64,000 bases of DNA, from sequence record OP312987.1, one strand, 5' to 3'. The notes below the pieces were generated by a model that did no database searches, was not told the DNA's origin, and saw only the letters and a list, made by a program, of their open reading frames with translations. The position numbers and the translations under genes are program-made. Positions within the stretch are counted from its first letter, which is position 1, and every line of letters begins with the position of its first letter. This document shows, one piece after another, positions 19,301-64,000 of the stretch. The DNA is from Escherichia phage vB_EcoS_Uz-1.

Positions 19301-22300
19301 ATCCTCAATAAGAGTGGTGATCGTAGAGAGAGTCCTTGGCTCTTTGCTGATGGTACTGTTGTTGGTTCTAACGGTGATCACATTAGCCTGTCCGATGTAT
19401 TTGGTCACGATGGTTATCGTGATATGTCTCTGGACACTGGTGCTGTACGCTCCACTTTCTACAAAGGTAGTGAGCAACCATTTGTATCTCTGCAATTGTT
19501 TGATAATCAGAAGTTGACTGCTAAACAGTTTGATACTGTTAAGTCCTTTGTTGATGCTAACAATGCACTGATTCAAGTAGGTGTAGATACTTCTGGTCGT
19601 AATACCAATAACGTTGAGAAGGTAGAGGTATCACTGGCTCAACTGAAAGCAGACTATACTGTTGGTGGTAAACCTTTGTCTGAGATGGAAACAGTGTTCC
19701 CTGTTTATAACAATGACAAGACACCGAACCAGTTCCTTAAAGCATTTACCCTACCAGAAGAACCTAAGTCTCGTACCATTGGCTCTGAATCTCCTTTGAC
19801 TGATGTTAAGAAAGCACTGTCTTCTGCTGCTCGCTTTGAAGCATTCACTCAAAAAGAAAATAACGCTCTCACAAGTGATGTGATTAAGCGTTATCAGGAC
19901 TTAATGGACTTTGGTGAAACCCTGAAGACTACCCTGTCTGACCGTCTGACTAAGTTCCTTGCTAACAAGAATGTCGGTAAACGCTTTGCAGAAGGTACTG
20001 AGGCTAACCGTTGGGTAGGTGGTAAGTTACTTAACATCGTAGAGAAAGATGGGGATACCTTTAAGTTTAATGACCAGTTGTTAGAGACTGCTGTACTTGC
20101 TGGTCTGCAATGGCGATTGACTGCTACACAGAATGCTGCCGTTAAAGATATGAAAGACGTAGCTGCTATTACTGGTGTAGAAGCATCTCTGTTACCTGAA
20201 GGTATTCTGGCTGACTTCGAGAATGCTCAGACCCTGGTTGAAGCTACTAACTCACTGGCTCAAAAGATTGAATCTTATTGGGGTCTGAATCGTAATCCTA
20301 ATGCACCACTGGGTTATACCAAAGGTATCCCAATGGCAATGGCTACGGAGATTCTGTCTTCTCTCATTGAGATGGGTGAAGTTAAAGAATCTATGCTTGA
20401 TGTGTCTGAGATTGACCCAGATTCCAATAAGACTGTTGGTCTGTATACCATTGAGAAGCTGGATGACAATGATGCCATTAATAAATTCCCTACTGCTATT
20501 GAGGAAGCTGTCCTCTTAGAACCAGAAGAGAAAATGTACTTCGGTGACGACATTCCTTCCGTGGCTCAAACTCAGTTACGTAACCCGGCTGTTAAGAATA
20601 CCCCTGAGCAGAAAGCTGCACTGAAAGCCGAACAGGCTACCGAGTTCCGTGTACACATGCCGATGGTTAACTTCTATGAAGCATTGGGACGTGACAACAT
20701 TCTGGAACTGATGGGTGCTGGTACTCTTAACCCAGAACTACTGAACGTGAACACTGCTAAATCTCTGGAAGGTAAAAACCTGTCCGTATCCATGGCATAT
20801 GATTCTCTGTTTGGTGTAATCAGCCAGATACGGGAACAAGAGAATGGACTGGATACACCTATCCATTACGGTTACAACATGACCCGTGTAGGTCGTATGC
20901 AGATGCTTGGTAAGAACAACCCACAATCCAGTAAACTGGTTCGTGAAGCAATCTTACCGACTTTCTCTACTATCGACTTGAGTAATGAAAACAGCCAAGC
21001 GTTCTCTGACTTCCAGTTAGGACTGGCTCAGGCATTAGGCATCAAGGTACATAACATGTCCCGTGAAGCTATGTCTGAAAAGTTGACCAAGGCTCTGGAA
21101 GGTAATCTGAAACCTGCTGTTGATATGATGGTTGAGTTTGATAAGTCTGGGCACTTACCTGCTGATGCAGTAGATATTCTGAAGACCTCCTGGGTGGATG
21201 ATAAATCCTTCGTAGCTCTCATGGCTCTGATGGAATATGCCCGTTACCTGAACAGTGATGACCGTGCCAACTTTACTACTCCACTTTACGTTGAAGCTGA
21301 TGGAGTAACCAACGGCCCGATTAACGCAATGGTATTAATGACTGGTGGTAAGTTCACCCCAGACTGGATTAAGAATACTGCCAAAGGTGGCTTGTTCTTC
21401 GGCAAAGCTGGTAAGACTATGAACGAACATCGTTCACAGGATGACAGTGTTGACCTGTATGAAGCATCTACCAATGGTCTGCAACAAGCCCTGAATGAGT
21501 TACGTACTACTTACCGTAACAACGTTCCGGTTATGAGCCAGATGAATCATCTCCAGAAGTTAATGGACCTGTTCATCAAAGACTTTAACCTGAACGAAGA
21601 CGGTACTCTGGACCTGAAACGTGGTATCGCTAAAAACCCACTGACCATTACCATCTATGGCTCTGGTGCACGTGGTATTGCTGGCAAGATGGTTAGTGCA
21701 ATTACTGACACCATCTATGAACGCTTCAGTGACGTTCTGCAAGCACGGGCTGCTGACCCTAGCATTTCCCCGGCTATGGCAATGTTTGGTAAGGAGGCTG
21801 CGTCTGAGGCTGATGCTCAGGCTATGCTGGATACTTTCCTTACTTCTATGGAAGCACTGACTGGTAATGTTCCAGTTATGCGTAAAGGTGAATTGTCTAT
21901 TCAGCAAGTAGAGGGTGCTCTGACTGGTAAGTTAGACCCTCAGAAATTTACCGTATCCGGTAACGCCCTGAAGAACTTACAGGAGAACATGCTCCATCTG
22001 TTCGTTGAACCAATGCGTACTGGTATCCGTAATACTGTTGGTGAAGGTCTGATGCACTCTACCGAGAACTTGCAGAAGGCTACCCAGATTCAGTCTCTGG
22101 TATTGCAGGATATGTTCCAACAAGCAGTACAGGCTAAGCTGGCAGAAAAAGAAAAAGACCCAACCTGGAAGAAGGGTGATTTCTTAACCCAGAAAGAACT
22201 GAATGAAATCCAGGAATCATTGTCTCCATTGGCTCCAATGATTGAGACTGGTTCGCAGACTTTCTACATTGCTGGTAGTGAGAATACTGATGTTGCTAAC

Positions 22301-25300
22301 CAAGTGCTGGCTACCAACTTAGATGACCGTATGCGTGTGCCAATGAGCATCTATGCTCCTTCGCAGGCAGGTGTTGCAGGTATTCCATTTATGACCATTG
22401 GTACTGGTGATGGCATGATGATGCAGACCCTTTCTACTATGAAAGGTGCTCCGAAGAATACCCTTAAAATCTTTGATGGTATGAACATTGGTATCAACAA
22501 CATCACCGATGCAAGTCGTAAAGCTAACGAGGCTGTGTACACTTCCTGGCAGGGTAACCCTATCAAGAATGTTTATGACTCCTTCTCTAAGTTCATGAAG
22601 AATGTAGACTTCAGCAAACTGTCTGATGAAACCAAACAAGCCATTGCTAAGTCTGCTCTGGAATATGACCAGCGTGAAGGTGCTACTGATGACCTGTTAC
22701 GTGTTGGTGCTGAACAGATTGAACGTAACCTGCGTAACATTGCTCTGGGTGTAGATATTCGCCACAAAGTAATGAACCAGGTACAGACTACTGTTGACCA
22801 GATGGCAGCTGTAGGTGCTCCTTACGTTAATAATGGTAAAATCTCTCTGGAAGGTCTGACCGTAGACCAGCAAGTAGCTAAGCTGAACGAACTGTTTGAT
22901 GCTGAGTTAAACAAGCGTCGTGATGCAGTACGTGCTGCTAAAACAGAACCAGAGAAAGAAGTACCAGCAATGGAACAGGTTGGTCGTGTACTGAAGTCTG
23001 GTGTACGTCTACTGTCTAATACTGCTATCTCTAAGCTGGCTAAAGAGATGTCTCCGGAACAGCAAGCAGTATTGAAAGAAGTACAGAAATCCCTTGCTGC
23101 TAAAGACTACAAGGTTGTTTACGGTACACCTTCTCAACTGGATGCATACGCTATTGAGAAGAATATTACTCGCCCAGCACCGGAAGATATTGAAGCTGCT
23201 GAAGCAGGTAATGCGTATGGCTGGACTAATTTCGAGGATAAGACCATCTACTTAGTTACCCCTTCCTTAGAGACTCTGGTTCATGAATTGGTACATGCTT
23301 CTACTTTTGAATCTGTACTGGCTCACTATGAGGGTACTCCTAATGAAGCAGTCCAGAACATTGAAGACCTGATGAACCAGTTCCGTGCTCTGGATGTTAA
23401 GGATGAAACTCCGGCAGTACGCGAAGCATACGCAGATGCACTTAATACTATTAATGGTCATTTATCTAATGGCTTCATTGAACCAGCAATGGCTAAAGCT
23501 GCTGCATTAAATGAGTACATGGCGTGGGGCTTAACCAACCGTGAACTGATTAGTAAGCAGAAGAAAACTACTGCACTTAAGACTATGGTTCAGGCTGTAT
23601 ACGAAGCAATCAAGCGTCTGGTATTTGGGCGTAAGAAAGCACCAGCTAATGCAGATGATATGTTCTCAGGCTTACTGTTTAACTCTGCTGTAGTAATGCG
23701 TGGACAAGCTCCTACTGCTGCTGTAGCCAAAGATACTACCTTGTTCCATAACAAAGCATACGGTGACAATACTCGTCTGGAAGAGCTAGGGAAAACCTTT
23801 GATAAGTTGATTACTGATTACATTGGCTCAGAACCAGTACAGCAAGTAATTCGTAAAGGTAAGTTCTCTGATGCAGTAGTGAATGCAACTAAAGTAACTC
23901 GTGATGTTCAGGCTCATGGCTTCACTATGAATATGCAGGAACAGCGTCTCTTTACTAACATCGTTGCTGCTCTGGCTATTGAAGCTGCTATTAATCCTGC
24001 TGTCCCGGCTCGTGCACAGGAATACTATACGCATGTTACTAAGAACCTGACTGTTGAAGCATTCATGGCTGACCCAGATAGTACTAACCCTGCTGACCGT
24101 TACTATGCTCAACAGAAGTTCGATACCATCATGGGTGCTAACAACATTGAGTTTGATGCACAAGGTCGTTCTTCCTTACTGCCTACCTTTGTTGGTCTGG
24201 CAATGGTAAGTGAAGAAGTACGTAGAGTATTGGCTGACATTCCAGTTATGAAAGCAGATAAGCAATCCGGTAATACAGTTGATGCAATGCTGACTAACAT
24301 CGGTACTGCTGCAATGGCTAGTCTTAATGCTCGTGTAGCAGGTGATACCAAAGCTACCAACGTACAGGAAGGTATGGATGCACTGGCTCAGACAATCATG
24401 CAGACAAGTCTTAATGCACAATCCTTCTACGATTCCGTTGCTACTCCTAGTGGTAATGCTATTGATCGTGCTAACCAGTATCTGGTGGACTCTATTGATG
24501 TACTGTCTACCCGTGCTTTAGAAGGTGCTCGTGAAGTTGCAGCTAATACTAAGAACCCGTTGGTTAAAGGTGCTGCTCATGCTGCACAACTAATAGCTGC
24601 TATTGCCACAGAAAAGAATGGTGCAATCGTAGCTGAGGGTGTTATGGCTGCAATGAACCAGGGTAAGGTATGGCAACCTTTCCATGACCTGGTTAATGAC
24701 TTAACTGGTCGTACTAAGAGCAATGCTTCTGTATATGATTTGATTAAAGCAGTTCGTGCACAGGTACAAGCTGACCGTCAGCAGTTCCGTGAACATTTGC
24801 CTACCACTATCGCATCTAAGTTCAGCCGTAAGCTTACTAATGATGAGTGGAAAGCAATGCATACTGGTATGGGTAAAGCTGACTTAGCTGTTTTACGCGA
24901 CACTATGTCTCTGGCTGAAATCCGTGACTTGCTGACTGACCAGAAGATTGTTGACCGTGAAGTGAATAAGCTGGAAGCAGACTTGCAGAAACAAGCAGGA
25001 CGTAACTGGCCTCTGATTAGTCGTAAATCTAAGCAACTGGCTCAGTACATGATTAATGGCACAGTTGGTAATAATCTGCTGCGTAATGCTACTGCAATTT
25101 CCCGTATGCTGGGTGAACGTCAGGCTGCACGTTCTACTGTAGATGTAGCTCAACTGGATAAACTGATTACTCTGTATGCACTGGAAGCAATGAGTAAGAC
25201 TGACCGTGAGATGTTATCTTCACTGGCTCAGACAGAAGTTGAGGGAATGGACTTTGCTACTTCTTATCTGGTTGGGCAGCGTAAGGATGAAATGGCTAAA

Positions 25301-27085
25301 GCCAAATCTGATACTCGTGCAACCCTGAACCAGTACAAAGGGTATATCCCCAGTGAGACTAAACAGGGTGTTAACCTGATTGTTGCTGAAGATAGTCAGT
25401 TTGCTGATTTGATTGAGAAGTCCTACGTACGTTTAGGTACATATCAAGGTAGTTCTGCTAATCGTGGTCCAGCACGTAGCTACTATTTTGCACCGGTACA
25501 GGCACAGGCTCCATTCTCACAGGGTATCCTACAGAACGTTCGCAATACTGCTGGTGGTGTAGACCTTGGCACAGGCTTTACGATGGGTTCTATGGTAGCT
25601 GGTCGTATCACTGACAAGCCGTCCGTAGACCGAATCACTAAAGCACTGGCTCGCGGCGAGCGTGGGAATGAACCACTGCTGCCTGTATATGATGATAAAG
25701 GTAATGTAGTTGCTTATGAGCAATCTATTGACCCTAATATGCTGAAGCACATTGAGGGTGAAAATCATCTTGCTCGTGCAATCGGTGTATGGCGTGGTCG
25801 TCAGGTAGAGGAAGCTAAGGCTCAGCGTTTCAACGATATGCTGATTGAAAACCTGCATAACATGTATGAGAACGACATTAAGATGTCTGCCTCTAATAAG
25901 TCCCAGTACGTGAATCTCCTTGGTTCTAAACTGGACCCAGTAACTGCCGATGCACTTAAACTTATGAACAGTGAAACACGTCAGAAAGCTGAAAGTCTGT
26001 TTGGTGAAGGTGAACTGTGGGTACGGCGTGACATGCTGAATGATGCATTGGGTTATCGTGCAGCTTCTGTAGGGGATGCCTGGTCTGGTAATTCTCGTTG
26101 GTCCCCGGAAACACTGGATACCTTCAAGAAAGCTATGCTAGGTGTATTCGGTAACCGTGCTTATAAGTATGTAATGGGTGGTGAGAACCTGGTTCAGAAT
26201 TTAGTTAAAGAAGCCAAAACTCTGATTGTAGTTAAGTCAGTAGTTGTACCTGCTGTTAACTTCTTAGCTAACCTTTACCAGATGGTTGGTCGTGGTGTAC
26301 CTGTTAAGAACATTGCCAAGAGCATTCCACAGAAAACTGCTGAGATTAACCAGTACCTGAAATCTCGTCTGCGTCAGGTAGATGCAGAAGCAGAATTACG
26401 CGCAGCTACTAACCCGAACCAGATTCGTAAGCTTAAGGCTGAAATTCAGTCCATTACTGATAGCCATAAGCGTATGAGTATCTGGCCTCTGTTAGAAGCT
26501 GGTGAGTTCTCTTCAATTGCAGATGCTGGTATTGGTCGTGATGACATCCTGATTACTGAAGGTAAACTTCACGAATACATGGATAAGCTGGCTGATAAGT
26601 TACCTAAGTCTGTACGTAATGCTGGACGTTATGCACTTATAACCAAGGATACTGCTCTCTTCCAGGGTATCCAGAAGACGGTTGAGTACTCTGACTTTAT
26701 TGCTAAAGCAATCATCTATGATGACTTAACTCAGCGTAAAGGTAAGACTAGTGAAGAAGCACTTGGACGTGTAACAGAAGAGTTTATTAACTATGACCGT
26801 CTGCCAGGTCGATTCCGTGGGTATATGGAGAGTGTCGGTTTAATGTGGTTCTATAACTTTAAGATTCGTTCTGCAAAAGTTGCAGTATCCATGATTCGTA
26901 ATAACCCGGTACATGCAGCTATGGCTATGTTGGCTCCAACTCCTACCATGTTTGGTAACGTTGGTCTGCCTATTCAGGACAACATCTTCAGTATTGCTGC
27001 ACAAGGTAATCTCGGTTACTCCTGGGGCTTCGGACAAGGGCTACGTGCCCATAACCTGAACCCTTGGCTCAATCTTACTAACTAA
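16355..27085 (+). CDS. virion-encapsidated RNA polymerase (N4 gp50-like giant vRNAP)
   Basis: Single uninterrupted 3576-aa ORF (10.7 kb) at the end of the structural module. This size and placement is the hallmark of N4-like phages. Polymerase motifs were not verified by alignment. Confidence 0.85.
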   Translation: MNRKHAMSTFDRLAGFADSITNAKQVDVSTATSQKQAAQGQSPFQLTPENAYNLQTGRVGNLGIGAFEPGSLQADFTQASPLEILNKYGNEQGLQILNSRANAADAVRQDLSKQRTNAEAFGDTLSGVGLGVANTLGGIAALGTGLVNDNAGASIASGMDWLNEGVHNLQSDALNATRKVVQNQNQISAQKNQKLYKQDIKNGESNLVASLSRIGRDAFDSVANTLDNGMSATDGLSEGVGSLFTGGPLIRGVSALGKVMVGGNKAVKGITLAAELGSRPAQVALSAGRVAAPAIAIGGMEAGGAYQQTASEIMKMPINELASKSPVYQQHIADGLSPDEARRQTASETGITAAGLTAPVAAATGPLVSRFELNPLKVGSLAGAGSNMLRETVEEGIQSGTSQFAQNKAIQGNVDAKRDLLKGVGEQAGLGALYGFGSAGVAQAPGATVKAVGASAGPALRTTLAGASLVGKALAKVASPLTNILVQRGEEVAKRNEQASPVADATVNAAAQEAASQAEQAQATVQEAVDAMDISPEEKAAATQYAADLTQAMKFDPVELEQANPVIREAVSGSTNRVEAIQKMADLVNTAEDPNVQMEAAIQMYDNIMSMDSFINRDPGALANLEQGSPAATIVDQFSGLMANVQNTPKVLRAFRAIHSMIQEQAEAGKLKATEEANQAQANNIAMAADVSPEVLDADSVNMVLKHASEGKITLGNRQRAALQSAAALLQGAREFDAKAEELGLRPQDIVSKQIKTDESRSNEGQYSALQHAKRIRSAYNSGNFDLASAYLSDFMKFAQHMQNKVGALNEHLISGNADKNKSVHYQALSPSREWVRSRTGLGVNPYDTKSVKFAQQVGLEAKTVADIANALATAYPELNVSHVKVTPLDSRLDKPAAQVVKEFRQGGLDATQSQQTNEPVNQVDETPAPVQEATTTVQPKAKPVVENKTVPVKETSSKAEEVSTTESERDAYVKENTISQDILNKSGDRRESPWLFADGTVVGSNGDHISLSDVFGHDGYRDMSLDTGAVRSTFYKGSEQPFVSLQLFDNQKLTAKQFDTVKSFVDANNALIQVGVDTSGRNTNNVEKVEVSLAQLKADYTVGGKPLSEMETVFPVYNNDKTPNQFLKAFTLPEEPKSRTIGSESPLTDVKKALSSAARFEAFTQKENNALTSDVIKRYQDLMDFGETLKTTLSDRLTKFLANKNVGKRFAEGTEANRWVGGKLLNIVEKDGDTFKFNDQLLETAVLAGLQWRLTATQNAAVKDMKDVAAITGVEASLLPEGILADFENAQTLVEATNSLAQKIESYWGLNRNPNAPLGYTKGIPMAMATEILSSLIEMGEVKESMLDVSEIDPDSNKTVGLYTIEKLDDNDAINKFPTAIEEAVLLEPEEKMYFGDDIPSVAQTQLRNPAVKNTPEQKAALKAEQATEFRVHMPMVNFYEALGRDNILELMGAGTLNPELLNVNTAKSLEGKNLSVSMAYDSLFGVISQIREQENGLDTPIHYGYNMTRVGRMQMLGKNNPQSSKLVREAILPTFSTIDLSNENSQAFSDFQLGLAQALGIKVHNMSREAMSEKLTKALEGNLKPAVDMMVEFDKSGHLPADAVDILKTSWVDDKSFVALMALMEYARYLNSDDRANFTTPLYVEADGVTNGPINAMVLMTGGKFTPDWIKNTAKGGLFFGKAGKTMNEHRSQDDSVDLYEASTNGLQQALNELRTTYRNNVPVMSQMNHLQKLMDLFIKDFNLNEDGTLDLKRGIAKNPLTITIYGSGARGIAGKMVSAITDTIYERFSDVLQARAADPSISPAMAMFGKEAASEADAQAMLDTFLTSMEALTGNVPVMRKGELSIQQVEGALTGKLDPQKFTVSGNALKNLQENMLHLFVEPMRTGIRNTVGEGLMHSTENLQKATQIQSLVLQDMFQQAVQAKLAEKEKDPTWKKGDFLTQKELNEIQESLSPLAPMIETGSQTFYIAGSENTDVANQVLATNLDDRMRVPMSIYAPSQAGVAGIPFMTIGTGDGMMMQTLSTMKGAPKNTLKIFDGMNIGINNITDASRKANEAVYTSWQGNPIKNVYDSFSKFMKNVDFSKLSDETKQAIAKSALEYDQREGATDDLLRVGAEQIERNLRNIALGVDIRHKVMNQVQTTVDQMAAVGAPYVNNGKISLEGLTVDQQVAKLNELFDAELNKRRDAVRAAKTEPEKEVPAMEQVGRVLKSGVRLLSNTAISKLAKEMSPEQQAVLKEVQKSLAAKDYKVVYGTPSQLDAYAIEKNITRPAPEDIEAAEAGNAYGWTNFEDKTIYLVTPSLETLVHELVHASTFESVLAHYEGTPNEAVQNIEDLMNQFRALDVKDETPAVREAYADALNTINGHLSNGFIEPAMAKAAALNEYMAWGLTNRELISKQKKTTALKTMVQAVYEAIKRLVFGRKKAPANADDMFSGLLFNSAVVMRGQAPTAAVAKDTTLFHNKAYGDNTRLEELGKTFDKLITDYIGSEPVQQVIRKGKFSDAVVNATKVTRDVQAHGFTMNMQEQRLFTNIVAALAIEAAINPAVPARAQEYYTHVTKNLTVEAFMADPDSTNPADRYYAQQKFDTIMGANNIEFDAQGRSSLLPTFVGLAMVSEEVRRVLADIPVMKADKQSGNTVDAMLTNIGTAAMASLNARVAGDTKATNVQEGMDALAQTIMQTSLNAQSFYDSVATPSGNAIDRANQYLVDSIDVLSTRALEGAREVAANTKNPLVKGAAHAAQLIAAIATEKNGAIVAEGVMAAMNQGKVWQPFHDLVNDLTGRTKSNASVYDLIKAVRAQVQADRQQFREHLPTTIASKFSRKLTNDEWKAMHTGMGKADLAVLRDTMSLAEIRDLLTDQKIVDREVNKLEADLQKQAGRNWPLISRKSKQLAQYMINGTVGNNLLRNATAISRMLGERQAARSTVDVAQLDKLITLYALEAMSKTDREMLSSLAQTEVEGMDFATSYLVGQRKDEMAKAKSDTRATLNQYKGYIPSETKQGVNLIVAEDSQFADLIEKSYVRLGTYQGSSANRGPARSYYFAPVQAQAPFSQGILQNVRNTAGGVDLGTGFTMGSMVAGRITDKPSVDRITKALARGERGNEPLLPVYDDKGNVVAYEQSIDPNMLKHIEGENHLARAIGVWRGRQVEEAKAQRFNDMLIENLHNMYENDIKMSASNKSQYVNLLGSKLDPVTADALKLMNSETRQKAESLFGEGELWVRRDMLNDALGYRAASVGDAWSGNSRWSPETLDTFKKAMLGVFGNRAYKYVMGGENLVQNLVKEAKTLIVVKSVVVPAVNFLANLYQMVGRGVPVKNIAKSIPQKTAEINQYLKSRLRQVDAEAELRAATNPNQIRKLKAEIQSITDSHKRMSIWPLLEAGEFSSIADAGIGRDDILITEGKLHEYMDKLADKLPKSVRNAGRYALITKDTALFQGIQKTVEYSDFIAKAIIYDDLTQRKGKTSEEALGRVTEEFINYDRLPGRFRGYMESVGLMWFYNFKIRSAKVAVSMIRNNPVHAAMAMLAPTPTMFGNVGLPIQDNIFSIAAQGNLGYSWGFGQGLRAHNLNPWLNLTN

Positions 27086-29069: not shown

Positions 29070-29071
29070 AT

Positions 29072-56724: not shown

Positions 56725-56753
56725 TAAAAAATAAACCCTCCGTTAAGAGGGTT
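56725..56753 (-). terminator. intrinsic terminator (minus strand)
   Basis: AACCCTC-CGTTAA-GAGGGTT followed on the minus strand by TTTATTTTTT. Confidence 0.5.
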
Positions 56754-56934
56754 AGTTGTTTACACAGTAGATAGCGAAAGCTATCCATCCTGCCATTACA
56801 AAGCATCCTAGTGAATATGCCCCATAGTAGCAGTAAGCAAACTTAGACTTGTGGGCACGGACTATCGTAGCCAGAACCAGTACAGATAAAACTATCAGTA
56901 TTAACTGAGAGATTACTTCAAAAGGGATTAGCAT
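56752..56934 (-). CDS. small membrane protein
   Basis: Track ORF 56752..56967; internal start at 56934 (MLIPFEV) preferred because the first 11 codons overlap a terminator hairpin. Confidence 0.35.
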   Translation of the reverse strand: MLIPFEVISQLILIVLSVLVLATIVRAHKSKFAYCYYGAYSLGCFVMAGWIAFAIYCVNN

Positions 56935-56951
56935 AGTTGTTACCTCCAAGC

Positions 56952-56984
56952 AAAAAATATGCCTCACTCCCGAAGGAATGAGGC
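56952..56984 (-). terminator. intrinsic terminator (minus strand) after RNAP II large subunit gene
   Basis: GCCTCA-CTCCCGAAGGAA-TGAGGC followed on the minus strand by ATATTTTTTG. Confidence 0.45.
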
Positions 56985-56991
56985 TAGTTTA

Positions 56992-58209
56992 TTAACTCAA
57001 CGCATAGTCTGTTTCAAGAATGTCCTGCCAGAGGCTGTCATCCAGCTTACCAGCAGAGAACTCTTGCCCCAGTACCTGAGACAGGATGAAGCCCAGTAGG
57101 TCACTCTTAGCAATATCAGACAGGATCTGATTGTACTGACGACGCAGGTCATTACCGTAGTTAGGATGGCAACGGAAGCAGTCATGTACAGTCATTACAG
57201 GGAATGGTTTCTTAGGCAGAGTGTCAATCATATCTGCTACTACCTGACGGTCTACATAAGCAATAGTACATGGGTCAAGATAGTCCAGGATGGATAAAGA
57301 TAAGAAGCCAGACTTCTCATAATGGCTCCATAGCTCTTGTACCTTCTCCAGATTACCTGCAATCTCCCCATATTCTGATGGACCTTCATCACAGAGTTCT
57401 CGCACAGCTTCCACTAAGTCACGTTCGAAGTTACAACGACGTAGCATCTCACGCACTACCATCCCATCAATAGAGTGAGTGATGTTAGCAGAGAGCATAC
57501 GGGTCTTCTCTTCAGTACCCTGAACCATACGGGTGATATCAAATGGTTTACCTAAGAAGTTAACAGTCTGTACTTCTGGAACCATGACCTTAATCACAGC
57601 ATGGAAGTTGTCAGGCAATACCCATACGTAACGATTAGCATCCGGGTTACCACATTGCAGTAAGAACTTGTTCAATGCCCAAGGACCACTCGCAACCGTT
57701 TCCATTACATTCTCAAAAGTCTTGAGACGAATACCTTCACCGAATACTTCTTTAGGCTTAGCTTCTGAACCGTAGAACGCAGTCATAACTGCCTGCTTAG
57801 TGTCACTACGTTTAATACGTGAAGCTTCACCAAGGATGTCCAGCATCTTGTGATAGATAACTGTATAAGCATCACGACGTAATGGCTTACCATTCTCTCC
57901 CATGTAGTTAACTACGTTACACAGTTCAGCAGCAGAGCGGTCACCAGTCAGACAGGCCAGTAACTGTAAGCCAGATGATGTAGCATCCAGAGCTACAGCA
58001 TAACCAATAGGCTTACCAGCTTTCATATCCTTCCATGCGTTTACACCAGCATAAAACAGTGCAGATTCTTCAGCTTCATCTACCAGATTAAGTAGGTTAG
58101 CTTCATTCTCATCGAACCAGCTAATACGTTCATCCCATGTCTTCTTATCTAAGCCATAGTTGTTAGCGATATCTATTTTCAGGTATTGTTTAGCGGTTAA
58201 CAGTTGCAT
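56992..58209 (-). CDS. phage RNA polymerase II catalytic (large) subunit, T7-like single-subunit RNAP C-terminal half
   Basis: T7-RNAP-like motifs LDATSSGLQ (A), TAFYGS (B) and HDCF (C). Start re-derived at ATG 58209 with AAGGAA RBS; the track ORF starts at a GTG 30 nt upstream. Confidence 0.75.
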   Translation of the reverse strand: MQLLTAKQYLKIDIANNYGLDKKTWDERISWFDENEANLLNLVDEAEESALFYAGVNAWKDMKAGKPIGYAVALDATSSGLQLLACLTGDRSAAELCNVVNYMGENGKPLRRDAYTVIYHKMLDILGEASRIKRSDTKQAVMTAFYGSEAKPKEVFGEGIRLKTFENVMETVASGPWALNKFLLQCGNPDANRYVWVLPDNFHAVIKVMVPEVQTVNFLGKPFDITRMVQGTEEKTRMLSANITHSIDGMVVREMLRRCNFERDLVEAVRELCDEGPSEYGEIAGNLEKVQELWSHYEKSGFLSLSILDYLDPCTIAYVDRQVVADMIDTLPKKPFPVMTVHDCFRCHPNYGNDLRRQYNQILSDIAKSDLLGFILSQVLGQEFSAGKLDDSLWQDILETDYALS

Positions 58210-58415
58210 TTTATGTTCCTTTTGCTTCTTGCTCCCCACTATGGAGAGCCTGCTTATTGGATGGTTAGGCAGTTACTACGTCGGCAGATAGTTTATAAAT
58301 AATGGTTTTACTCTCAGGGTTTTGAAGCTTGTAAAGCTTCTCAAAGTATAAGCACTTCACATATGTACCTGAGTAGACACACTCTTCATTAACCCATAAT
58401 TCATAGGAGCCAATG

Positions 58416-59234
58416 TTAGTCTTCATTTACTAACTCTTTATCTGCGAACTCTATGACTGCTTTGTTATAAGAGGTTCCCGCATAGTTAATGTGGTATCCA
58501 CAGGCATAGGTTCGCCCACTCTTGTCATACTTATGCGCTAGTGAGAAGTTATTACCTTCTTTGGTCACTAATTCCATTACTTCCTTAGCAGTACGGCTGT
58601 ACTTTTCAAAGGCTTTAACACGTTTCTCATATTCCTGACGGGTTTCACCCTCTTTGGGCTTATCCATATTAGGACGAGAGTCTTTTACATAGTTAGCAAC
58701 GTCCCAGTTAATGCTTAGGCGTTGATTATTCATACGGTTGATATGGTCAAGACAGACATCCATCTCGTGATGGTTCTTCTTGAGGATGATGCTTCCCCTG
58801 CTCTCGTAGTAACCTGTATCACGGTTACACAGAACAGGCTTAGGAGCACTTACAATAGGTAATGGATACTGGAATGCTTCCAGTTCCATCTGAACATCTT
58901 CACTAATCTCATAGATAACACCGAACTTGTCGATGGTAGGGTCATAGTTGAAGCAGTCATTCTCTGCCATCTTATACAGACAGTCAGCAATGTACTGAGC
59001 ATCATCTGAGTGACTCATTAGGGAGCCAATCATAGTCTGAATGTCAGCACGTTTATGTAGGGCAATCTGCACCATTGCATCAATGAGCAGCTTATAATCA
59101 ATTTCCAAATAGGCAGCAAATGCCTTAAAGTCAATTTCTTCGGAGTCCTCAAATTCCTTCCTCATGCGAGGCAGTAATTGATTTTTATTGAATAGGACTT
59201 CAAGCTGCTTCTGATGTTCAATAGATGAGTACAT
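58416..59234 (-). CDS. phage RNA polymerase II small subunit, T7-like RNAP N-terminal half
   Basis: 272-aa ORF immediately upstream of the catalytic subunit on the same strand, AGGAG RBS. Assignment by synteny with two-subunit N4-like RNAP II. Confidence 0.55.
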   Translation of the reverse strand: MYSSIEHQKQLEVLFNKNQLLPRMRKEFEDSEEIDFKAFAAYLEIDYKLLIDAMVQIALHKRADIQTMIGSLMSHSDDAQYIADCLYKMAENDCFNYDPTIDKFGVIYEISEDVQMELEAFQYPLPIVSAPKPVLCNRDTGYYESRGSIILKKNHHEMDVCLDHINRMNNQRLSINWDVANYVKDSRPNMDKPKEGETRQEYEKRVKAFEKYSRTAKEVMELVTKEGNNFSLAHKYDKSGRTYACGYHINYAGTSYNKAVIEFADKELVNED

Positions 59235-59268
59235 CGCATATTCTCCTAATTGTTATTTAAATCCTTAA

Positions 59269-59283
59269 GCTGCGGAGCAGCTA
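59269..59283 (-). promoter_or_regulatory. candidate virion-RNAP hairpin promoter (5-bp stem, GGA loop) upstream of RNAP II genes
   Basis: Plus-strand CCTTAA-GCTGC-GGA-GCAGC, 35 nt upstream of the start at 59234. Shares the CCwTAA-NNNGC-GGA-GCNNN pattern with two other sites. Confidence 0.6.
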
Positions 59284-59287
59284 TTAC

Positions 59288-59548
59288 CTAACGCTTAGTC
59301 CAAAAGGTAATACGAATACTGTTCTCTTGGCCAAGGTAGTTGATACGTACATATAAACCATTACCGCTAAATTCATTACTTTTTTCTTTATAAGGCCATA
59401 CTAGACTACGCATTGGTATTTTAACGAAACCTGATATGTGACCTAGCTTAGTACGACCCTTTAGTTCGTTCTGCAATGCACAGTAGATATCATGCCGTGT
59501 GAGTGCTCTGGCTCTAACCTGAGCAGCCCATAGTTCTTCATATGTCAT
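59288..59548 (-). CDS. hypothetical early protein
   Basis: 86-aa ORF, ATGA-coupled to the upstream gene. Confidence 0.4.
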   Translation of the reverse strand: MTYEELWAAQVRARALTRHDIYCALQNELKGRTKLGHISGFVKIPMRSLVWPYKEKSNEFSGNGLYVRINYLGQENSIRITFWTKR

Positions 59549-59928
59549 GAGAAGGTTCCCCAGTAGATATAGTCATCTCCCAGAATAGGCTTCCAGGCTT
59601 CATCAAACATGACATTGCCTGTAGCATTGGCAAACATAGGAGCAATTTCTTCATCCTTATAGCCAGCCAATCCACAACCAATACGTGTTACTTTAAAGTC
59701 CCACTCTGGGTGTGCTGCTGCATATCCCATGAAATATTTTACGAACATATCAATAGCTTCTAAGGGCATTGTTTTAATGTTCTGGTCTTTAGTAGGAATT
59801 GCATAGCTGCAACCATAATGACCAGCTCCCATACCCCAGCGAGCACCGTGTTTCTTATACGCAACTTTCGCTGCACCAGCACCGTGACGGCCTGCTAAAT
59901 TACTACCGAATACGAAGATTTCTTTCAT
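59545..59928 (-). CDS. hypothetical early protein with glycine-rich nucleotide-binding-like motif
   Basis: 127-aa ORF; N-terminal IFVFGSNLAGRHGAGAAKVA resembles a Rossmann-like phosphate-binding loop. Family not identified. Confidence 0.4.
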   Translation of the reverse strand: MKEIFVFGSNLAGRHGAGAAKVAYKKHGARWGMGAGHYGCSYAIPTKDQNIKTMPLEAIDMFVKYFMGYAAAHPEWDFKVTRIGCGLAGYKDEEIAPMFANATGNVMFDEAWKPILGDDYIYWGTFS

Positions 59929-60004
59929 TTGCAGTGATTCCTTACTTCTTTATAAAAGATAAGTGCAGTCGGCCTTGTATTCACATTGGCTAGCTCTGAA
60001 CACA

Positions 60005-60109
60005 TCAGAGCATACTCATGTCATGCTGTTCTTTCTTGGTTCGACAGTGACCACACTTGCTATCCCATTGGGATGCATAGCCTTTCCCACAATTACATTG
60101 TTTGTTCAT
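60005..60109 (-). CDS. 34-aa zinc-ribbon-like micro-ORF (below the 60-aa track cutoff)
   Basis: MNKQCNCGKGYASQWDSKCGHCRTKKEQHDMSML with a four-Cys CxC...CxxC pattern; its ATG overlaps the upstream stop as ATGA. Confidence 0.3.
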   Translation of the reverse strand: MNKQCNCGKGYASQWDSKCGHCRTKKEQHDMSML

Positions 60110-60354
60110 TTAAAAGTACTCCATGGTATGGACTCCAAGTAATTAATTTTGTAAATAATCTTACTTCTTATTTCTCCACCAACATCTTGTACATGGATTA
60201 GGTTTAACCTTTGTGCTTGGGTTATAGTAGCTGCAAGAGTTCTCCCCATAATATTTGATATTTCTATAAAAGATTTATTGGATTCTACTAGTATCTTTAA
60301 ATTAGTATTATCTAAGTTACTCCACTCTTTAGAATGATTTGCTGGCTTATCCAT
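60106..60354 (-). CDS. hypothetical early protein
   Basis: 82-aa ORF. Confidence 0.4.
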   Translation of the reverse strand: MDKPANHSKEWSNLDNTNLKILVESNKSFIEISNIMGRTLAATITQAQRLNLIHVQDVGGEIRSKIIYKINYLESIPWSTFK

Positions 60355-60727
60355 TTGGATTCTCCACGAAATAGTTATACATAGCCTTCACTAGCTTCTC
60401 TTTAATAACCTCACCATGACATGGTTTCGGATAACAGAAGCACTGTAAGGCCAGTCCTTTCTCGTCAATGGCTTTATTACCCAGACGATTGAGTTCATCC
60501 AGTACAACTGGATTCTTTATCATTATCTGTTCTTGCAGCCAGACTTTATACTTAGCAATTACTTGCTCCCTGGTTCCATGTTTACCAATGACGAATGGAT
60601 TTCCAAGAGGTGAACCACGTCCAATATACTCACCGGATTTACCGTGATGTTTGTTAACAATACTAATTGGACGTGCAGATACACCCAGCAGAGCATTGGT
60701 GTTATCACCTAATGAGATAGTTTTCAT
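60347..60727 (-). CDS. DUF4326-like protein
   Basis: YIGRGSPLGNPF motif followed by a conserved W, recalled as characteristic of the DUF4326 phage family. Confidence 0.45.
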   Translation of the reverse strand: MKTISLGDNTNALLGVSARPISIVNKHHGKSGEYIGRGSPLGNPFVIGKHGTREQVIAKYKVWLQEQIMIKNPVVLDELNRLGNKAIDEKGLALQCFCYPKPCHGEVIKEKLVKAMYNYFVENPNG

Positions 60728-61038
60728 GGTTTAAGTACCTGGAATGCGAATACTGGACGTTTACTACGCCATTGGTTCATGGCTAGTTCACTGGCAGGAG
60801 AGCCATCATGTAAGTCATATATGAATGTAATCATATACTCTGGTTCTTCCGGGAAGTTCTCTGTAGAGAAGGGTAAACCAGCTTCTTTAATACAGGTAAT
60901 CAATGGTGATTCTGGTTCACAATAAACAGTGAACTCTTCGTTGAATGCTTTACTAGTCTGAGATACATAATCAATATTACGCATCATCTTATCGACGTCA
61001 GTAAATGTATTATCATGTACTACTACAATAGTTTTCAT
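60724..61038 (-). CDS. hypothetical early protein
   Basis: 104-aa ORF, ATGA-coupled. Confidence 0.4.
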   Translation of the reverse strand: MKTIVVVHDNTFTDVDKMMRNIDYVSQTSKAFNEEFTVYCEPESPLITCIKEAGLPFSTENFPEEPEYMITFIYDLHDGSPASELAMNQWRSKRPVFAFQVLKP

Positions 61039-61226
61039 ACTGGCTCCCTGCCTGTAAATGCTACTACTTTTCCTGACATATTCCGTAGGGTTACCTGTGC
61101 TGAGTTAACATCAGCAAATTGCTCTGCAACCCAGTTAAGCATCTCAGGGTCATTATTTAATTGTTTGTTAATCACAGTTTTACTGTCTGCTGTTACTAAA
61201 GTGATTTCATAATTTTCAATATTCAT
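61035..61226 (-). CDS. hypothetical early protein
   Basis: 63-aa ORF, ATGA-coupled. Confidence 0.35.
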   Translation of the reverse strand: MNIENYEITLVTADSKTVINKQLNNDPEMLNWVAEQFADVNSAQVTLRNMSGKVVAFTGREPV

Positions 61227-61480
61227 GCTACTTTCTCCAGCGTTAGGTAAACGTTATTATTGACAATACTCAAATCACAAAAACCAATCTCTTCTTGTCT
61301 CCCAGAGGATACCCAGATATTGTTTTCTGTTAGCTTAGGTTTTTTAGAGAATCCTATTAGTGAGGTATTAGCACTCTTATATTGACGAGGTAGTAATGCT
61401 ATATACTTAACCCAGTGAGGCACTTGAATAGTATGCTTCATATATTCCACAGTCTTGCCTGTAGGATATGCAATAATCAT
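61223..61480 (-). CDS. hypothetical early protein
   Basis: 85-aa ORF, ATGA-coupled. Confidence 0.35.
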   Translation of the reverse strand: MIIAYPTGKTVEYMKHTIQVPHWVKYIALLPRQYKSANTSLIGFSKKPKLTENNIWVSSGRQEEIGFCDLSIVNNNVYLTLEKVA

Positions 61481-61698
61481 TTCTGATACCCCTGTATATA
61501 GTTAATACGGCGAATACGTTGAGTAGATGCTTTAACAGCCATCTGTTGATTCTCTTCTTTATGCTGATTATTCAGCACCTTATCCCATTCTTTCTGATTC
61601 CGTTGTTTCTGTAATATACGACTACACTTCTTATGATTAGCAACTCCTCTTCCTTTATTGCAAATTGGGCAAATACCATAATTAGTGCTGAACAACAT
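61477..61698 (-). CDS. small basic protein with CxxC motif
   Basis: 73-aa ORF; GICPICNKG near the N-terminus and a K/R/Q-rich remainder. Confidence 0.35.
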   Translation of the reverse strand: MLFSTNYGICPICNKGRGVANHKKCSRILQKQRNQKEWDKVLNNQHKEENQQMAVKASTQRIRRINYIQGYQK

Positions 61699-61703
61699 TT
61701 TGT

Positions 61704-61934
61704 TTATTCCTTAGTAATGTGATTGGCAGTATAGAAGTCATTAATCTCTGATTGGGTAGTATCAGCATAACCGGATACACCGGTTTCTTTATTAACCCAT
61801 TTATCGAAGCACTCACTGTGTCCATGTGTACTAACTTTTACCCATGTACTGGTTCCAAAGAATGTTTTTTTCTCTACTTCTGCACCAATACCACGTTCAT
61901 TATCTGCAAAGCGTATTACCTTATATTTAGCCAT
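61704..61934 (-). CDS. hypothetical early protein
   Basis: 76-aa ORF. Confidence 0.35.
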   Translation of the reverse strand: MAKYKVIRFADNERGIGAEVEKKTFFGTSTWVKVSTHGHSECFDKWVNKETGVSGYADTTQSEINDFYTANHITKE

Positions 61935-62235
61935 TTAAAGCCTCCATTAATATTTTGCGAATAACGTTAACATCAGATTCAGTACCAATTAAACCAACAG
62001 GTTTCTTTGTACTATCTGTGACAAAGGATGCAATCCTTTCCATCTCTGCTGTAATTAGTTTGTCCCCACTAATAAGACGATTACGGAGGTAAGCTTCATA
62101 AGCTACCTCTACATCTTCTACTGTGGTTCTTTCATTACGAGTGAATGGATTACTTAATTGAAAGGGTAAGTGGATACGGATATTCCTGTCAGCTATCTTA
62201 GCTGATTGAGGAAGTATACAAACAATTTCATTCAA
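61927..62235 (-). CDS. hypothetical early protein
   Basis: 102-aa ORF. Confidence 0.4.
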   Translation of the reverse strand: MNEIVCILPQSAKIADRNIRIHLPFQLSNPFTRNERTTVEDVEVAYEAYLRNRLISGDKLITAEMERIASFVTDSTKKPVGLIGTESDVNVIRKILMEALNG

Positions 62236-62277
62236 GGTTATTTCTCCTATTTAAATACATATCTAACTATTCAGGAA

Positions 62278-62306
62278 TAAAAAATAGAAGCCCTCCTAAT
62301 GGAGGA
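62278..62306 (-). terminator. candidate intrinsic terminator (minus strand)
   Basis: CCTCC-TAAT-GGAGG stem followed on the minus strand by CTATTTTTTATT. Confidence 0.35.
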
Positions 62307-62426
62307 CTCCTAGTTACTTGATACATGAATGGTTGAAGGTAACAATCTTACGTACTGGTTCAGACGTCTGTTTCTTAGCAACCAGACGTTCTTTCATCTT
62401 TTGCACGTCTTCTCTGGTTCCCATGA

Positions 62427-62609
62427 TTAATGATTTACGCATGATTTAGTACTCCACATAAAGTTAAAAGGTTTATTCTTACGTACAATTCTTACAACCA
62501 TTTGATAGCCATTGAGTTGTACAACACCATAGTGTCGTTTCTGTACACCAGTGTGATACCTACGAAAGATACATTCTTCAATGGCATCATCTATGTTAGT
62601 GAATATCAC
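62427..62609 (-). CDS. hypothetical early protein
   Basis: 60-aa ORF, ATGA-coupled to the upstream membrane protein ORF. Confidence 0.3.
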   Translation of the reverse strand: MIFTNIDDAIEECIFRRYHTGVQKRHYGVVQLNGYQMVVRIVRKNKPFNFMWSTKSCVNH

Positions 62610-62794
62610 TGGTTCCTCTTTGCAAACTCTTCTGCTTGTTGCTTGTAGTACTGAGTCATTGCTTTCTTGTGTTTAATACTAGCAATGAGACACTCGATAG
62701 TAACGAATGGCAGTTTAGCAATAAGCAACCATTTATGACGTAACTTCCAACCCAGAAAGTAGAAGATTACACAGAAAGCGATGAAGTCTAACAT
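62606..62794 (-). CDS. small membrane protein
   Basis: 62-aa ORF with an N-terminal TM helix. Confidence 0.35.
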   Translation of the reverse strand: MLDFIAFCVIFYFLGWKLRHKWLLIAKLPFVTIECLIASIKHKKAMTQYYKQQAEEFAKRNQ

Positions 62795-62896
62795 GGTTAC
62801 TCCTTCATCTAATATAAATCTATATCTATCTGGTTACTGTTTTAGTACCCTTCGTCTAAAGATGCTCAAAAAGTAGAAATAGTTTATCGTCTAGTT

Positions 62897-62926
62897 AAAA
62901 ATAAAAGACTCCCCGAAGGGAGTCTT
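62897..62926 (-). terminator. intrinsic terminator (minus strand)
   Basis: AAGACTCCC-CGAA-GGGAGTCTT followed on the minus strand by TTTTATTTTT. Confidence 0.5.
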
Positions 62927-62934
62927 ATGGTTGA

Positions 62935-63315
62935 TTAGAAAGTCAGTTTACGAGCATATTTATTCTCGTCTGCTGGGATGTCAGCAGCCTCTGCTTTCAC
63001 ACGACGAAGTTGAACTTGCAGGTTAATGATACCTTCTTCACCTGGTTCCAGGTTCTGAGCATATTCGATTAACTGTTCCAGCAAATCGTTCTGTGCACAA
63101 CGCATAGCACGGAAGTCAGCATTGCTGCTGTTAGTAGGCAGTGGTTCCTGAGTATCCAGTGGAATACCAGTAGGCAGAGAGATGAATTTCTCATCTTCAG
63201 AGCCTTCATTAGCAATATAACCAATGTTCAACCAGAACTGAGCCTTAGGCTTAGCAGTTTTAGCAGTGGTAGCAGCAGTGTTAGATTGACCGAAAGTGAA
63301 TTTTTGAATAGACAT
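62935..63315 (-). CDS. early protein with acidic C-terminal tail
   Basis: Start re-derived at ATG 63315 (MSIQKF) with GGAGA RBS 8 nt upstream; track ORF 62935..63408 extends further. C-terminus [18 protein letters not shown]; lies 100 nt downstream of a hairpin promoter. Confidence 0.45.
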
Positions 63316-63421
63316 TTTGTACTCTCCAGATTTATGTGATTTACGGGTGAACTCGTCGGTGAGAACACCCAAACAAAGGGATAAAAGTTCAATGATTAGT
63401 GGATGCATTTACATCATCCAT

Positions 63422-63438
63422 AAGACGCGGAGCGTCTT
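63422..63438 (-). promoter_or_regulatory. candidate virion-RNAP hairpin promoter (GGA loop)
   Basis: Plus-strand CCATAA-GACGC-GGA-GCGTC (stem extendable to 7 bp), upstream of the gene starting at 63315. Confidence 0.6.
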
Positions 63439-63533
63439 GGTTTTTAGAAGTAGAAGTAAAGTAGATAGTTATCTACTTTTGACTATCTATCTAATGTTCA
63501 AAACAGGAGACTCCGAAGAGCCTCCCAGGTGAT

Positions 63534-63857
63534 TTAGTCTTTAGTCAGGATGTCAATTACTTTTGAATATTCTGCGTTATAGATACGAGCGTTTTCTGAA
63601 TCTTTGCAGAATTCCTCAATACTTTTCTTACGCAGAGTCTCGTTCATAGCTGTTTCTTCAGCTAATTTGTTTACGAATGTATGCATTTCTAACTTAGTAC
63701 GGATGGCTTGTTTCTCTGCCATAGTAGATACATATGAGTTAAGCATACCTACTGCTTTAGTAGCTGTGCCAAATGTATCTGCAACAGTAGTAGCAGCTGA
63801 GTTAACAGTACCAAGTAAAGTTCCTGCGGTCATACGTACAGTAGCTTGAGTAGTCAT
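63534..63857 (-). CDS. hypothetical early protein
   Basis: 107-aa ORF directly downstream of a hairpin promoter. Confidence 0.4.
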   Translation of the reverse strand: MTTQATVRMTAGTLLGTVNSAATTVADTFGTATKAVGMLNSYVSTMAEKQAIRTKLEMHTFVNKLAEETAMNETLRKKSIEEFCKDSENARIYNAEYSKVIDILTKD

Positions 63858-63900
63858 GATGATAGCTCCAATAGTTGATGATAGGACGACATGTCCATAA

Positions 63901-63913
63901 CATGCGGAGCATG
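63901..63913 (-). promoter_or_regulatory. candidate virion-RNAP hairpin promoter (GGA loop)
   Basis: Plus-strand CCATAA-CATGC-GGA-GCATG, 44 nt upstream of the start at 63857. Confidence 0.6.
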
Positions 63914-64000
63914 TGTAACGTGTAAGGTGGGGTAGGGTAGTGGCTACAGGGTCAACATACCGGGGGGGGTAGTTGAGTGTAAGGGTGTAGCCCCTGCCAC

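Follow-up and report, generated by a model that had tools for sequence, protein, structure and literature searches.

The right end of the 64,000-nt stretch of Escherichia phage vB_EcoS_Uz-1 DNA analyzed here (OP312987.1; hereafter the window) carries three small hairpins upstream of predicted early genes. The locus raises the question of whether these hairpins are early promoters for a virion RNA polymerase (vRNAP) that enters the cell with the phage DNA, as was originally predicted. Judged by its sequence, the phage is a Gamaleyavirus (G7C/Bp4-like, Schitoviridae), that is, an N4-related coliphage, and Escherichia phage Bp4 of the same genus showed 94% identity to the 5-kb region. The window is oriented in reverse to the N4 genome, and the genome's physical left end is at base 64000, which aligns with the left termini of N4 and G7C.

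Three GGA-loop hairpins on the template strand

All three hairpins were present on the plus strand, 0-2 nt from the predicted positions. They are intergenic and lie 5' of minus-strand genes, the plus strand being the template, with 3-nt loops and stems of 6, 7, and 6 bp at sites 1, 2, and 3, respectively. In site 1 (59263..59282, the putative P3 orthologue) CCTTAA at 59263-59268 precedes GCTGC-GGA-GCAGC at 59269-59281, with the stem reaching 6 bp as AGCTGC-GGA-GCAGCT; the loop centre (-11) falls at 59275, the CC at +2/+1 at 59263-59264, and the spacer is TTAA with T at -1. Site 2 (63418..63438, the putative P2 orthologue) consists of CCATAA (63418-63423) and GACGC-GGA-GCGTC (63424-63436), with the stem extended to 7 bp (AAGACGC/GCGTCTT, 63422-63438), the loop centre at 63430, the CC at 63418-63419, and the spacer ATAA. 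In site 3 (63895..63914, the putative P1 orthologue) CCATAA (63895-63900) is followed by CATGC-GGA-GCATG (63901-63913), the 6-bp stem being (A)CATGC-GGA-GCATG(T); its loop centre (-11) is at 63907, the CC at 63895-63896, and the spacer ATAA (-1 to -4). Read from the sequence, every site has a template C at the predicted +1 (59264, 63419, and 63896) and a second C at +2. The starts previously expected at 63419 and 63896 were retained, and the one expected at 59265 is better placed at 59264.

The possibility that these are chance inverted repeats in AT-rich intergenic DNA, without any function, was confronted with the motif counts. The heptamer GCGGAGC occurs exactly three times in the window, always on the plus strand and always at sites 1-3, and by itself it is not enriched (3 observed vs 2.49 expected), as a chance origin would have it. 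Against such an origin, the full motif CCWTAA-N3-GCGGAGC gave three exact matches vs 0.00 expected (100 shuffles), and the sites occupy one strand, intergenic DNA, and positions orthologous to N4 P1-P3. The original prediction had named as evidence against a promoter role a motif equally common inside genes or on the opposite strand. This was not observed; beyond these three, neither strand of the window holds a hairpin that combines a 5-bp stem and a 3-nt loop with the GC-GGA-GC core.

When 41 nt of single-stranded DNA around each site were folded, the hairpin came out as the minimum-free-energy structure (-5.5 to -6.9 kcal/mol). These energies are modest (z-scores -1.4 to -3.4) by standard nearest-neighbour parameters, which leave out the special stability of GNA mini-hairpins. 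Sigma-70-like sites were scarce in the early region (3 vs 22.1 expected), as would be expected if the host RNAP does not transcribe it early.

Correspondence with the N4 promoters, early genes, and vRNAP

In vivo as well as in vitro, vRNAP initiation in N4 has been mapped to P1-P3 (Haynes & Rothman-Denes 1985; Glucksmann 1992; Dai 1998; Davydova 2007; Gleghorn 2008; all summarised in PMC4496689). The N4 early promoters lie in the part of the genome that is injected first, its leftmost ~10%, 5' of gp1, gp2, and the RNAPII genes. Each is a template-strand inverted repeat with a 5-7 bp stem and a 3-nt loop, with a template C at +1, 11 nt from the loop centre and 8 nt downstream of -8, and a transcript that begins with G. 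The promoter type is further defined by specific vRNAP initiation on ssDNA, or on supercoiled DNA with gyrase and SSB, and by early transcripts that resist rifampicin in vivo. Its requirements are a GC-rich heptamer centred at -11 in which -11 is a purine, -10 is G, -12 is A, and C(-9) pairs with G(-13) to close the loop, and the recognised features are listed as -11A/G, -10G, -8G (contacted in the stem through the major groove), +1C, the closing C:G pair, and the loop's 5'G and 3'A (PMC4496689). When the loop centre is placed at -11, all these recognised bases fall into place at sites 1-3: +1C, -8G (the first G of GCGGAGC, at 59272, 63427, and 63904), -9C, -10G, -11G, and -12A, the bases that N4 vRNAP reportedly reads, are all present.

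For direct alignment the promoters were read from the N4 genome. N4 P1, gtCCATAA-GTTGC-GAA-GCAAC-gtgtaacgtgta, corresponds to site 3, gtCCATAA-CATGC-GGA-GCATG-tgtaacgtgtaa; N4 P2, atCCAAAA-GAAGC-GGA-GCTTC-tt, to site 2, atCCATAA-GACGC-GGA-GCGTC-tt; and N4 P3, CCAAAA-GCTGC-GGA-GCAGC-ttattgcctaac, to site 1, CCTTAA-GCTGC-GGA-GCAGC-tattacctaac. The stem of site 1 equals that of N4 P3, and the flanks of site 3 equal those of N4 P1. The differences are a GGA loop in site 3 vs GAA in N4 P1, compensatory changes in the outer stem pairs of sites 2 and 3, and ATAA or TTAA spacers vs AAAA in N4 P2/P3, with -1T in site 1. In both phages three template-strand hairpins stand in the same order before the same genes (gp1, gp2, and gp15), at 93, 570, and 4725 nt from the terminus for sites 3, 2, and 1 vs 96, 565, and 4554 nt in N4. 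The proposed alignment to P1-P3 was therefore borne out in sequence, flanks, order, terminus distance, and downstream gene, and sites 3, 2, and 1 are very probably orthologues of the N4 early promoters P1, P2, and P3. From this orthology we infer the promoter activity, start sites, and relative strength of the three sites.

The first early gene, 3' of the P1 orthologue, encodes a 107-aa gp1 orthologue (63534..63857, minus; 67% identical to N4 gp1) and would have a 39-nt leader counted from the predicted +1. Next to site 2 lies the gene for a 157-aa gp2 orthologue (62935..63408, minus; 68% identical to N4 gp2, which binds ssDNA as a cofactor of RNAPII). Its ATG at 63408 is homologous to the annotated N4 gp2 start and would give a leader of 11 nt, a minor deviation; an alternative internal start at 63316 carries a GGAGAG Shine-Dalgarno sequence. 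The gene for the RNAPII small-subunit orthologue (N4 gp15, annotated 'RNAP1'; 272 aa, 58416..59234, minus, 65% identical) lies 3' of site 1, with a predicted leader of 30 nt. The distance of 35 to 110 nt between hairpin and gene start, claimed earlier for every site, applies to sites 1 and 3, where the ATG lies 35 and 44 nt, respectively, from the base of the stem; for site 2 it requires the internal ATG at 63316 and fails with the N4-homologous one at 63408, 16 nt from the stem.

The hairpins, especially that of site 2, might also be taken for intrinsic transcription terminators or insulators instead of promoters. Site 2 is followed by GGTTTTT on the plus strand, the consensus scan listed 63421-63439 (+) as terminator-like (8-pair stem, GTTTTTAGAA tail), and the P2-type hairpin has T-rich tails in several relatives. 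The region, however, has no plus-strand genes to terminate, sites 1 and 3 lack a T-run, and on the gene-bearing minus strand none of the three hairpins is followed by one. Separate canonical terminators are already in place after gp1 and gp2. The first, at 63505..63527 (minus; GGGAGGCTC-TTCG-GAGTCTCC, then TGTTTTG), was read from the sequence and is absent from the terminator scan owing to its short T-run; the same terminator-like hairpin follows gp1 in N4, and here it would close the P1 transcription unit before P2. The scan gave the second after gp2 at 62905..62926 (minus; AAGACTCCC-TTCG-GGGAGTCTT, then TTATTTTT) and another further into the early region at 62285..62312 (minus; 12-bp stem, then TTTTTTATT). 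Nor would a terminator explain why the GGA loop is invariant, why -8 is G, and why the CC keeps a fixed distance; these are exactly the elements that vRNAP reads (PMC4496689). We consider a terminator or insulator role highly improbable.

The same window encodes, at 16373..27085 (+; 3570 aa from ATG), the enzyme that is predicted to use the three hairpins as promoters; it is 66% identical to N4 vRNAP and matches its solved structures. The protein keeps the promoter-contact residues K114, R119, W129, K849, K850, D901, and R904 (N4 mini-vRNAP numbering) along with the catalytic and initiation residues; K437, R440, E557, D559, and D951 are likewise conserved. K267, in N4 one of two lysines melting the stem base, is replaced by N. 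Altogether, the alignment to P1-P3, the identity of the downstream genes, and the encoded vRNAP support the predicted reading of the hairpins as virion-RNAP early promoters.

Conservation of the hairpins in related phages

Covariation of the outer stem pairs around a fixed GC-GGA-GC was seen across contigs of related phages. Searches of IMG/VR showed complementary arms in 22 of 94 TCCATAA-N3-GCGGAGC matches vs ~1.5 expected, all 22 on N4-like contigs; among GCG[GA]AGC heptamers of the window and the N4-like loci the arms were complementary in 56 of 69. Across 37 distinct related sites, the five core pairs, three of them variable with up to four Watson-Crick types each, were paired in 97-100% of cases and all four types appeared at two core stem positions, in an alignment mixing paralogous and orthologous sites, so that its cell counts are not independent events. 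The covariation score reached 0.453 vs 0.119 in shuffles (0/500 shuffles attained it), and slid controls scored much lower. The test upheld the earlier claim of compensatory stem variation around a fixed loop. Dozens of related contigs preserve the hairpins while their stems change in a compensatory manner, which also speaks against functionless repeats; with the full-motif count and the complementary arms in relatives, this effectively refutes a chance origin, whose probability we regard as negligible.

PhAPEC7, ECBP1, and several IMG/VR contigs share the core of site 3 unchanged, and one IMG/VR contig (L051) has the same core and 3' flank as site 1. The -1 base, A in sites 2 and 3, is T in site 1 and in 8 of the 37 related sites; -1T appears tolerated. 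In N4 structures the initiating GTP stacks on a -1 purine, a conserved tendency and not an absolute requirement (PMC4496689). None of the 25 best GenBank matches carried a promoter annotation under the match.

Stable DNA mini-hairpins of the GNA type could alternatively serve replication priming (cf. ssi origins) or packaging/terminus recognition. GCGNAGC mini-hairpins are indeed found at the primase recognition sites of phage G4 and RSF1010 ssiA (PMC13037366), and site 3 lies only 93 nt from the genome terminus, but site 1 sits 4.7 kb away from it. Each of the three hairpins precedes an early gene by a short, fixed distance on the template strand, vRNAP initiation has been mapped to the orthologous N4 sites (PMC4496689), and the polymerase contact residues are conserved, which leaves very little room for such functions in place of the promoter role. 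The hairpins may combine the two, acting as promoters and in replication or packaging.

It is possible, but rather unlikely, that the early promoters are tuned unlike those of N4 and that a regulatory or insulating element has been added between the P1 and P2 units. Candidates for such tuning are the -1 pyrimidine at the P3 orthologue, before the RNAPII genes, and the loss of K267 in vRNAP; the added element might be formed by the P2 hairpin, including its T-run, and a conserved 10-bp AT-rich palindrome (63458-63479) just upstream.

Proposed mechanism and comparison with known systems

The mechanism by which sites 1-3 would act as promoters is taken from N4, and we infer it for the present phage. 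The vRNAP would be injected together with the left genome end (the right end of the window), and host DNA gyrase would supercoil the entering DNA so that small cruciforms extrude at the inverted repeats. The non-template hairpin would then be melted by E. coli SSB, whereas the GCGGAGC mini-hairpin of the template strand would stay intact, probably because the sheared G:A pair in its GGA loop stabilises it. The polymerase would bind the template hairpin with a Trp stacked on -11G, reading -10G, -9C, and -8G via the loop and the major groove, and would use the 4-nt A/T spacer as a ruler. Initiation with two GTPs opposite the template CC would take place at the predicted starts (59264, 63419, and 63896), followed by leftward transcription along the minus-strand genes. 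P1 would drive gp1, P2 would drive gp2, and P3 would boost the RNAPII genes; the products of all these genes together would build the middle-transcription machinery.

The feature is already known: hairpin promoters of the N4 type are textbook matter, and DNA hairpins that serve an injected single-subunit RNAP are among the best characterised unusual promoter types. The significance of the result beyond correct annotation is limited; the gain lies in exact predicted early starts and transcription units for a Gamaleyavirus whose nearest GenBank relatives lack promoter annotation, and in showing that N4-type promoters are recognisable from raw sequence. In a related phage, Klebsiella phage KP8, identical sequences are already on record as putative promoters: the same motif appears there as putative P1-P4, and putative P2, AAGACGCTCCGCGTCTTATGGA, exactly matches the reverse complement of site 2 (PMC6950046 Table 1). 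The motif is also present in the Enquatrovirinae G7C, PhAPEC7, and ECBP1; the window has three sites, whereas G7C, KP8, and some IMG/VR relatives have 4-5. The mini-hairpin of the N4 promoters is GCGGAGC, and mini-vRNAP binds promoters with a GGA loop at a Kd of 2 nM (PMC13037366).

The N4-like Pseudomonas phages LUZ7 and LIT1 also combine hairpins of at least 4 bp and a conserved 3-nt loop with an injected vRNAP (PMC9163698, PMC3715699), but differ from the window phage in sequence motif and host. Their transcription start sites (TSS) were mapped by experiment and begin with G (PMC9163698; PMC3715699), which in LUZ7 confirmed the hairpin early promoters (PMC9163698); the LUZ7 TSS lie 13-14 nt from the hairpin centre vs 11 nt in N4 and, by prediction, here. 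The vRNAP itself is a diverged T7-family enzyme and shares with T7-type RNAPs the specificity loop, the intercalating hairpin, and an upstream recognition element (PMC4496689). T7 promoters, however, are double-stranded 23-bp sequences, whereas those of the N4 type are single-stranded, structured as hairpins, and dependent on supercoiling and SSB.

Three hairpins in the early region and their N4 counterparts

Direct inspection of 59000-64000 together with a motif scan confirmed the three GGA-loop hairpins, each preceded by CCWTAA, on which the original prediction was built. All three small hairpins were perfect and lay on the plus strand, the template for the minus-strand early genes. Site 1 (GCTGC-GGA-GCAGC, 59269-59281) had CCTTAA directly on its low-coordinate side, and CCATAA occupied the same place at site 2 (GACGC-GGA-GCGTC, 63424-63436) and site 3 (CATGC-GGA-GCATG, 63901-63913). 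Counting flanking pairs, the stems of sites 1, 2, and 3 comprised 6, 7, and 6 bp, respectively, and in ssDNA folding each hairpin was the MFE structure (-5.5 to -6.9 kcal/mol).

The genome-wide hairpin search proposed earlier restricted the GC-GGA-GC core to these sites, although 116 hairpins with a 5-bp stem and a 3-nt loop were found per strand in the full scan. The heptamer GCGGAGC occurred in the 64-kb window only at sites 1-3, always on the plus strand, and was not enriched by itself (3 copies vs. 2.49 expected). The composite CCWTAA-N3-GCGGAGC had three exact matches vs. 0.00 in 100 dinucleotide shuffles, so the enrichment was limited to the full motif.

The 5-kb region shared 94% identity with Escherichia phage Bp4 and approximately 90% with PhAPEC7, ECBP1, and further phages of the genus Gamaleyavirus (Schitoviridae, Enquatrovirinae). 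The same hairpin scan applied to the N4 genome recovered three template-strand sites: P1 at position 96 (gtCCATAA-GTTGC-GAA-GCAAC-gtgtaacgtgta), P2 at 565 (atCCAAAA-GAAGC-GGA-GCTTC-tt), and P3 at 4554 (taCCAAAA-GCTGC-GGA-GCAGC-ttattgcctaac). The window is oriented opposite to the N4 reference, and its last base aligned with the left physical ends of the N4 and G7C genomes, hence the window extends to the first-injected end of the genome. The terminus alignment (63914-64000) included a conserved G/C run at 63962-63969 and the terminal motif GGTGTAGCCCC.

The three sites corresponded to P1-P3 one for one in sequence, distance, and downstream gene. Sites 3, 2, and 1 were located 93, 570, and 4725 nt from the terminus. 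Site 3 shared both flanks with P1, site 2 shared the frame atCC...GC-GGA-GC...tt with P2, and site 1 was identical to P3 in the stem-loop and the 3' flank. The downstream genes were orthologous to N4 gp1 (67% identity), gp2 (68%), and gp15, the RNAPII small subunit (65%). Terminator-like hairpins after gp1 (63527-63505, found by eye) and gp2 (62926-62905, from the terminator scan) indicate a unit structure as in N4. These data support the reading of sites 1-3 as early promoters, whose activity we infer by orthology.

The recognition code and the cognate polymerase

The N4 virion RNA polymerase (vRNAP), which is injected with the phage DNA, specifically recognizes -11A/G, -10G, -8G, and +1C on the template strand, while extrusion and stability require a C:G closing pair and the loop 5'G and 3'A (PMC4496689). 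In the same 2015 review, a sheared pair forms between -10G and -12A, D901 and R904 read -9C/-10G and -8G, W129 stacks on -11G, K114 and R119 bond -10G and -11G, four A's act as a ruler without contacts, and +1 and +2 are paired with two GTPs (PMC4496689). With the loop centre set to -11, all these bases were in place at 3/3 window sites; the CCWTAA motif resolved into CC at +2/+1 followed by the 4-nt ruler, with predicted template +1 positions at 59264, 63419, and 63896. The spacer was A/T-rich yet variable, which fits the ruler role. Site 1 carried T at -1; in the N4 structures the initiating GTP stacks on a -1 purine (PMC4496689), and among 37 distinct related sites the -1 base was A in 27, T in 8, and G in 2.

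The vRNAP of this phage is encoded by a 3570-aa ORF (16373..27085, plus strand) that matched all solved N4 vRNAP structures (E = 0), with 66% identity to N4 vRNAP overall and 70.5% across the mini-vRNAP domain. Residues K114, R119, W129, K849, K850, D901, R904, K437, R440, E557, D559, and D951 (mini-vRNAP numbering) were conserved, and K267, replaced by Asn, was the sole change among the residues compared. The mini-hairpins may have an additional, non-transcriptional role such as priming or packaging, but this fits poorly with the conserved polymerase contacts and with the location of site 1, 4.7 kb from the end.

The terminator scan also flagged site 2 (63421-63449, plus strand), where GGTTTTT comes after the P2 hairpin; in several relatives, P2-type hairpins likewise have T-rich tails. 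Intrinsic termination was nevertheless rejected as the main function, since the region has no plus-strand genes, T-runs are absent at sites 1 and 3, and the fixed loop, -8G, and CC would be left unexplained. On the plus strand the P2 hairpin with its T-run may hinder antisense transcription or aid extrusion.

Evidence for selection on structure and the search for further sites

IMG/VR was scanned with TCCATAA-N3-GCGGAGC, leaving the 3' arm free. The arm was fully complementary in 22 of the 94 matches vs. approximately 1.5 expected, and all 22 were on contigs that carried other N4-type sites or were 54-77 kb long; the remaining 72, scattered chance matches, served as an internal control. When only the heptamer was used as an anchor in the window and the N4-like loci, complementary arms accompanied 56 of 69 occurrences. 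Pairing at each of the five core pairs was 97-100% in the set of 37 distinct sites, with all four Watson-Crick types at two positions. The covariation score reached 0.453 vs. 0.119 in shuffles (attained by 0/500) and was far lower in slid controls; as the set mixes paralogues and orthologues, its counts represent non-independent events. Compensatory stem variation around a fixed loop, part of the original prediction, was nevertheless supported by at least 10 different stems around an invariant GC-GGA-GC. Chance inverted repeats are excluded by the covariation, the excess of complementary arms, and the composite motif count (3 vs. 0.00).

A relaxed scan of the window (3-nt loop with a purine centre, C:G closing pair, stem of at least 4-5 bp) revealed no additional hairpin combining a GC-GNA-GC core with CC at +1/+2. 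Both features were absent from a 5-bp GGA hairpin on the minus strand (loop centre around 41066, start coordinate 41073) and from a 4-bp GGA hairpin at 38137 (plus strand). In the hairpin TCAGCTA-TCT-TAGCTGA (62191-62203), CC preceded the loop centre by 11-12 nt, the spacing expected of a promoter, and the stem was kept in PhAPEC7 and G7C, there with the loop CTT. This hairpin was rejected as a vRNAP promoter because of the all-pyrimidine loop and its position within ORF 61927..62235, and its conservation may be mere coding conservation. The AAGTAGAW motif was weakly enriched (11 vs. 7.0 expected).

Related phages had four or five such hairpins vs. three in the window, with sites at 512 and 802 in G7C, 6675 and 6931 in the IMG/VR contig L051, and 6010 and 6441 in the N4-like locus L058. 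The extra copies were located between gp1 and gp2, where the relatives carry inserted genes, hence promoter number varies with the gene content of the early region.

Other features of the region and comparison with known systems

The N4-homologous ATG of the gp2 orthologue (63408) was only 11 nt downstream of the predicted P2 start, without a Shine-Dalgarno sequence; an in-frame internal ATG at 63316 was preceded by GGAGAG. N4 gp2 has the same layout, and the N-terminal extension of 32 aa was conserved between the two proteins, so the gene may use a near-leaderless start or yield two forms of the protein. A perfect 10-bp AT-rich palindrome (63458-63479, AAAGTAGATA-gt-TATCTACTTT), with GATAGATAG repeats before it, was located in the interval from the gp1 terminator to the P2 hairpin. 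Five related loci carried this palindrome in exact form, and a related inverted repeat (GATAGTT-caat-AACTATC) occupies the equivalent position in N4; the palindrome may act as a regulator site or as the stem of a second terminator. Sigma-70-like promoter matches were strongly depleted in 56000-64000 (3 vs. 22.1 ± 4.9 in shuffles), consistent with avoided initiation by host RNAP. Elsewhere in the window, ARAGORN detected three tRNA-like genes on the minus strand (28423-29643): Ile-aat, Cys-aca, and Ala-cgc.

Promoter annotation under the match was present in 0/25 best GenBank matches, hence the sites lack annotation but are not unknown. The literature cites GCGGAGC as the mini-hairpin of N4 promoters, and mini-vRNAP binds GGA-loop promoters with a Kd of 2 nM (PMC13037366). 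Hairpin early promoters were predicted in LUZ7 and LIT1 (PMC3715699) and confirmed in LUZ7 via TSS mapping (PMC9163698). Putative P1-P4 with the same motif were described in Klebsiella phage KP8, whose putative P2 is the exact reverse complement of site 2 (PMC6950046). Sites 1-3 represent the canonical N4 early promoter, a feature already known.
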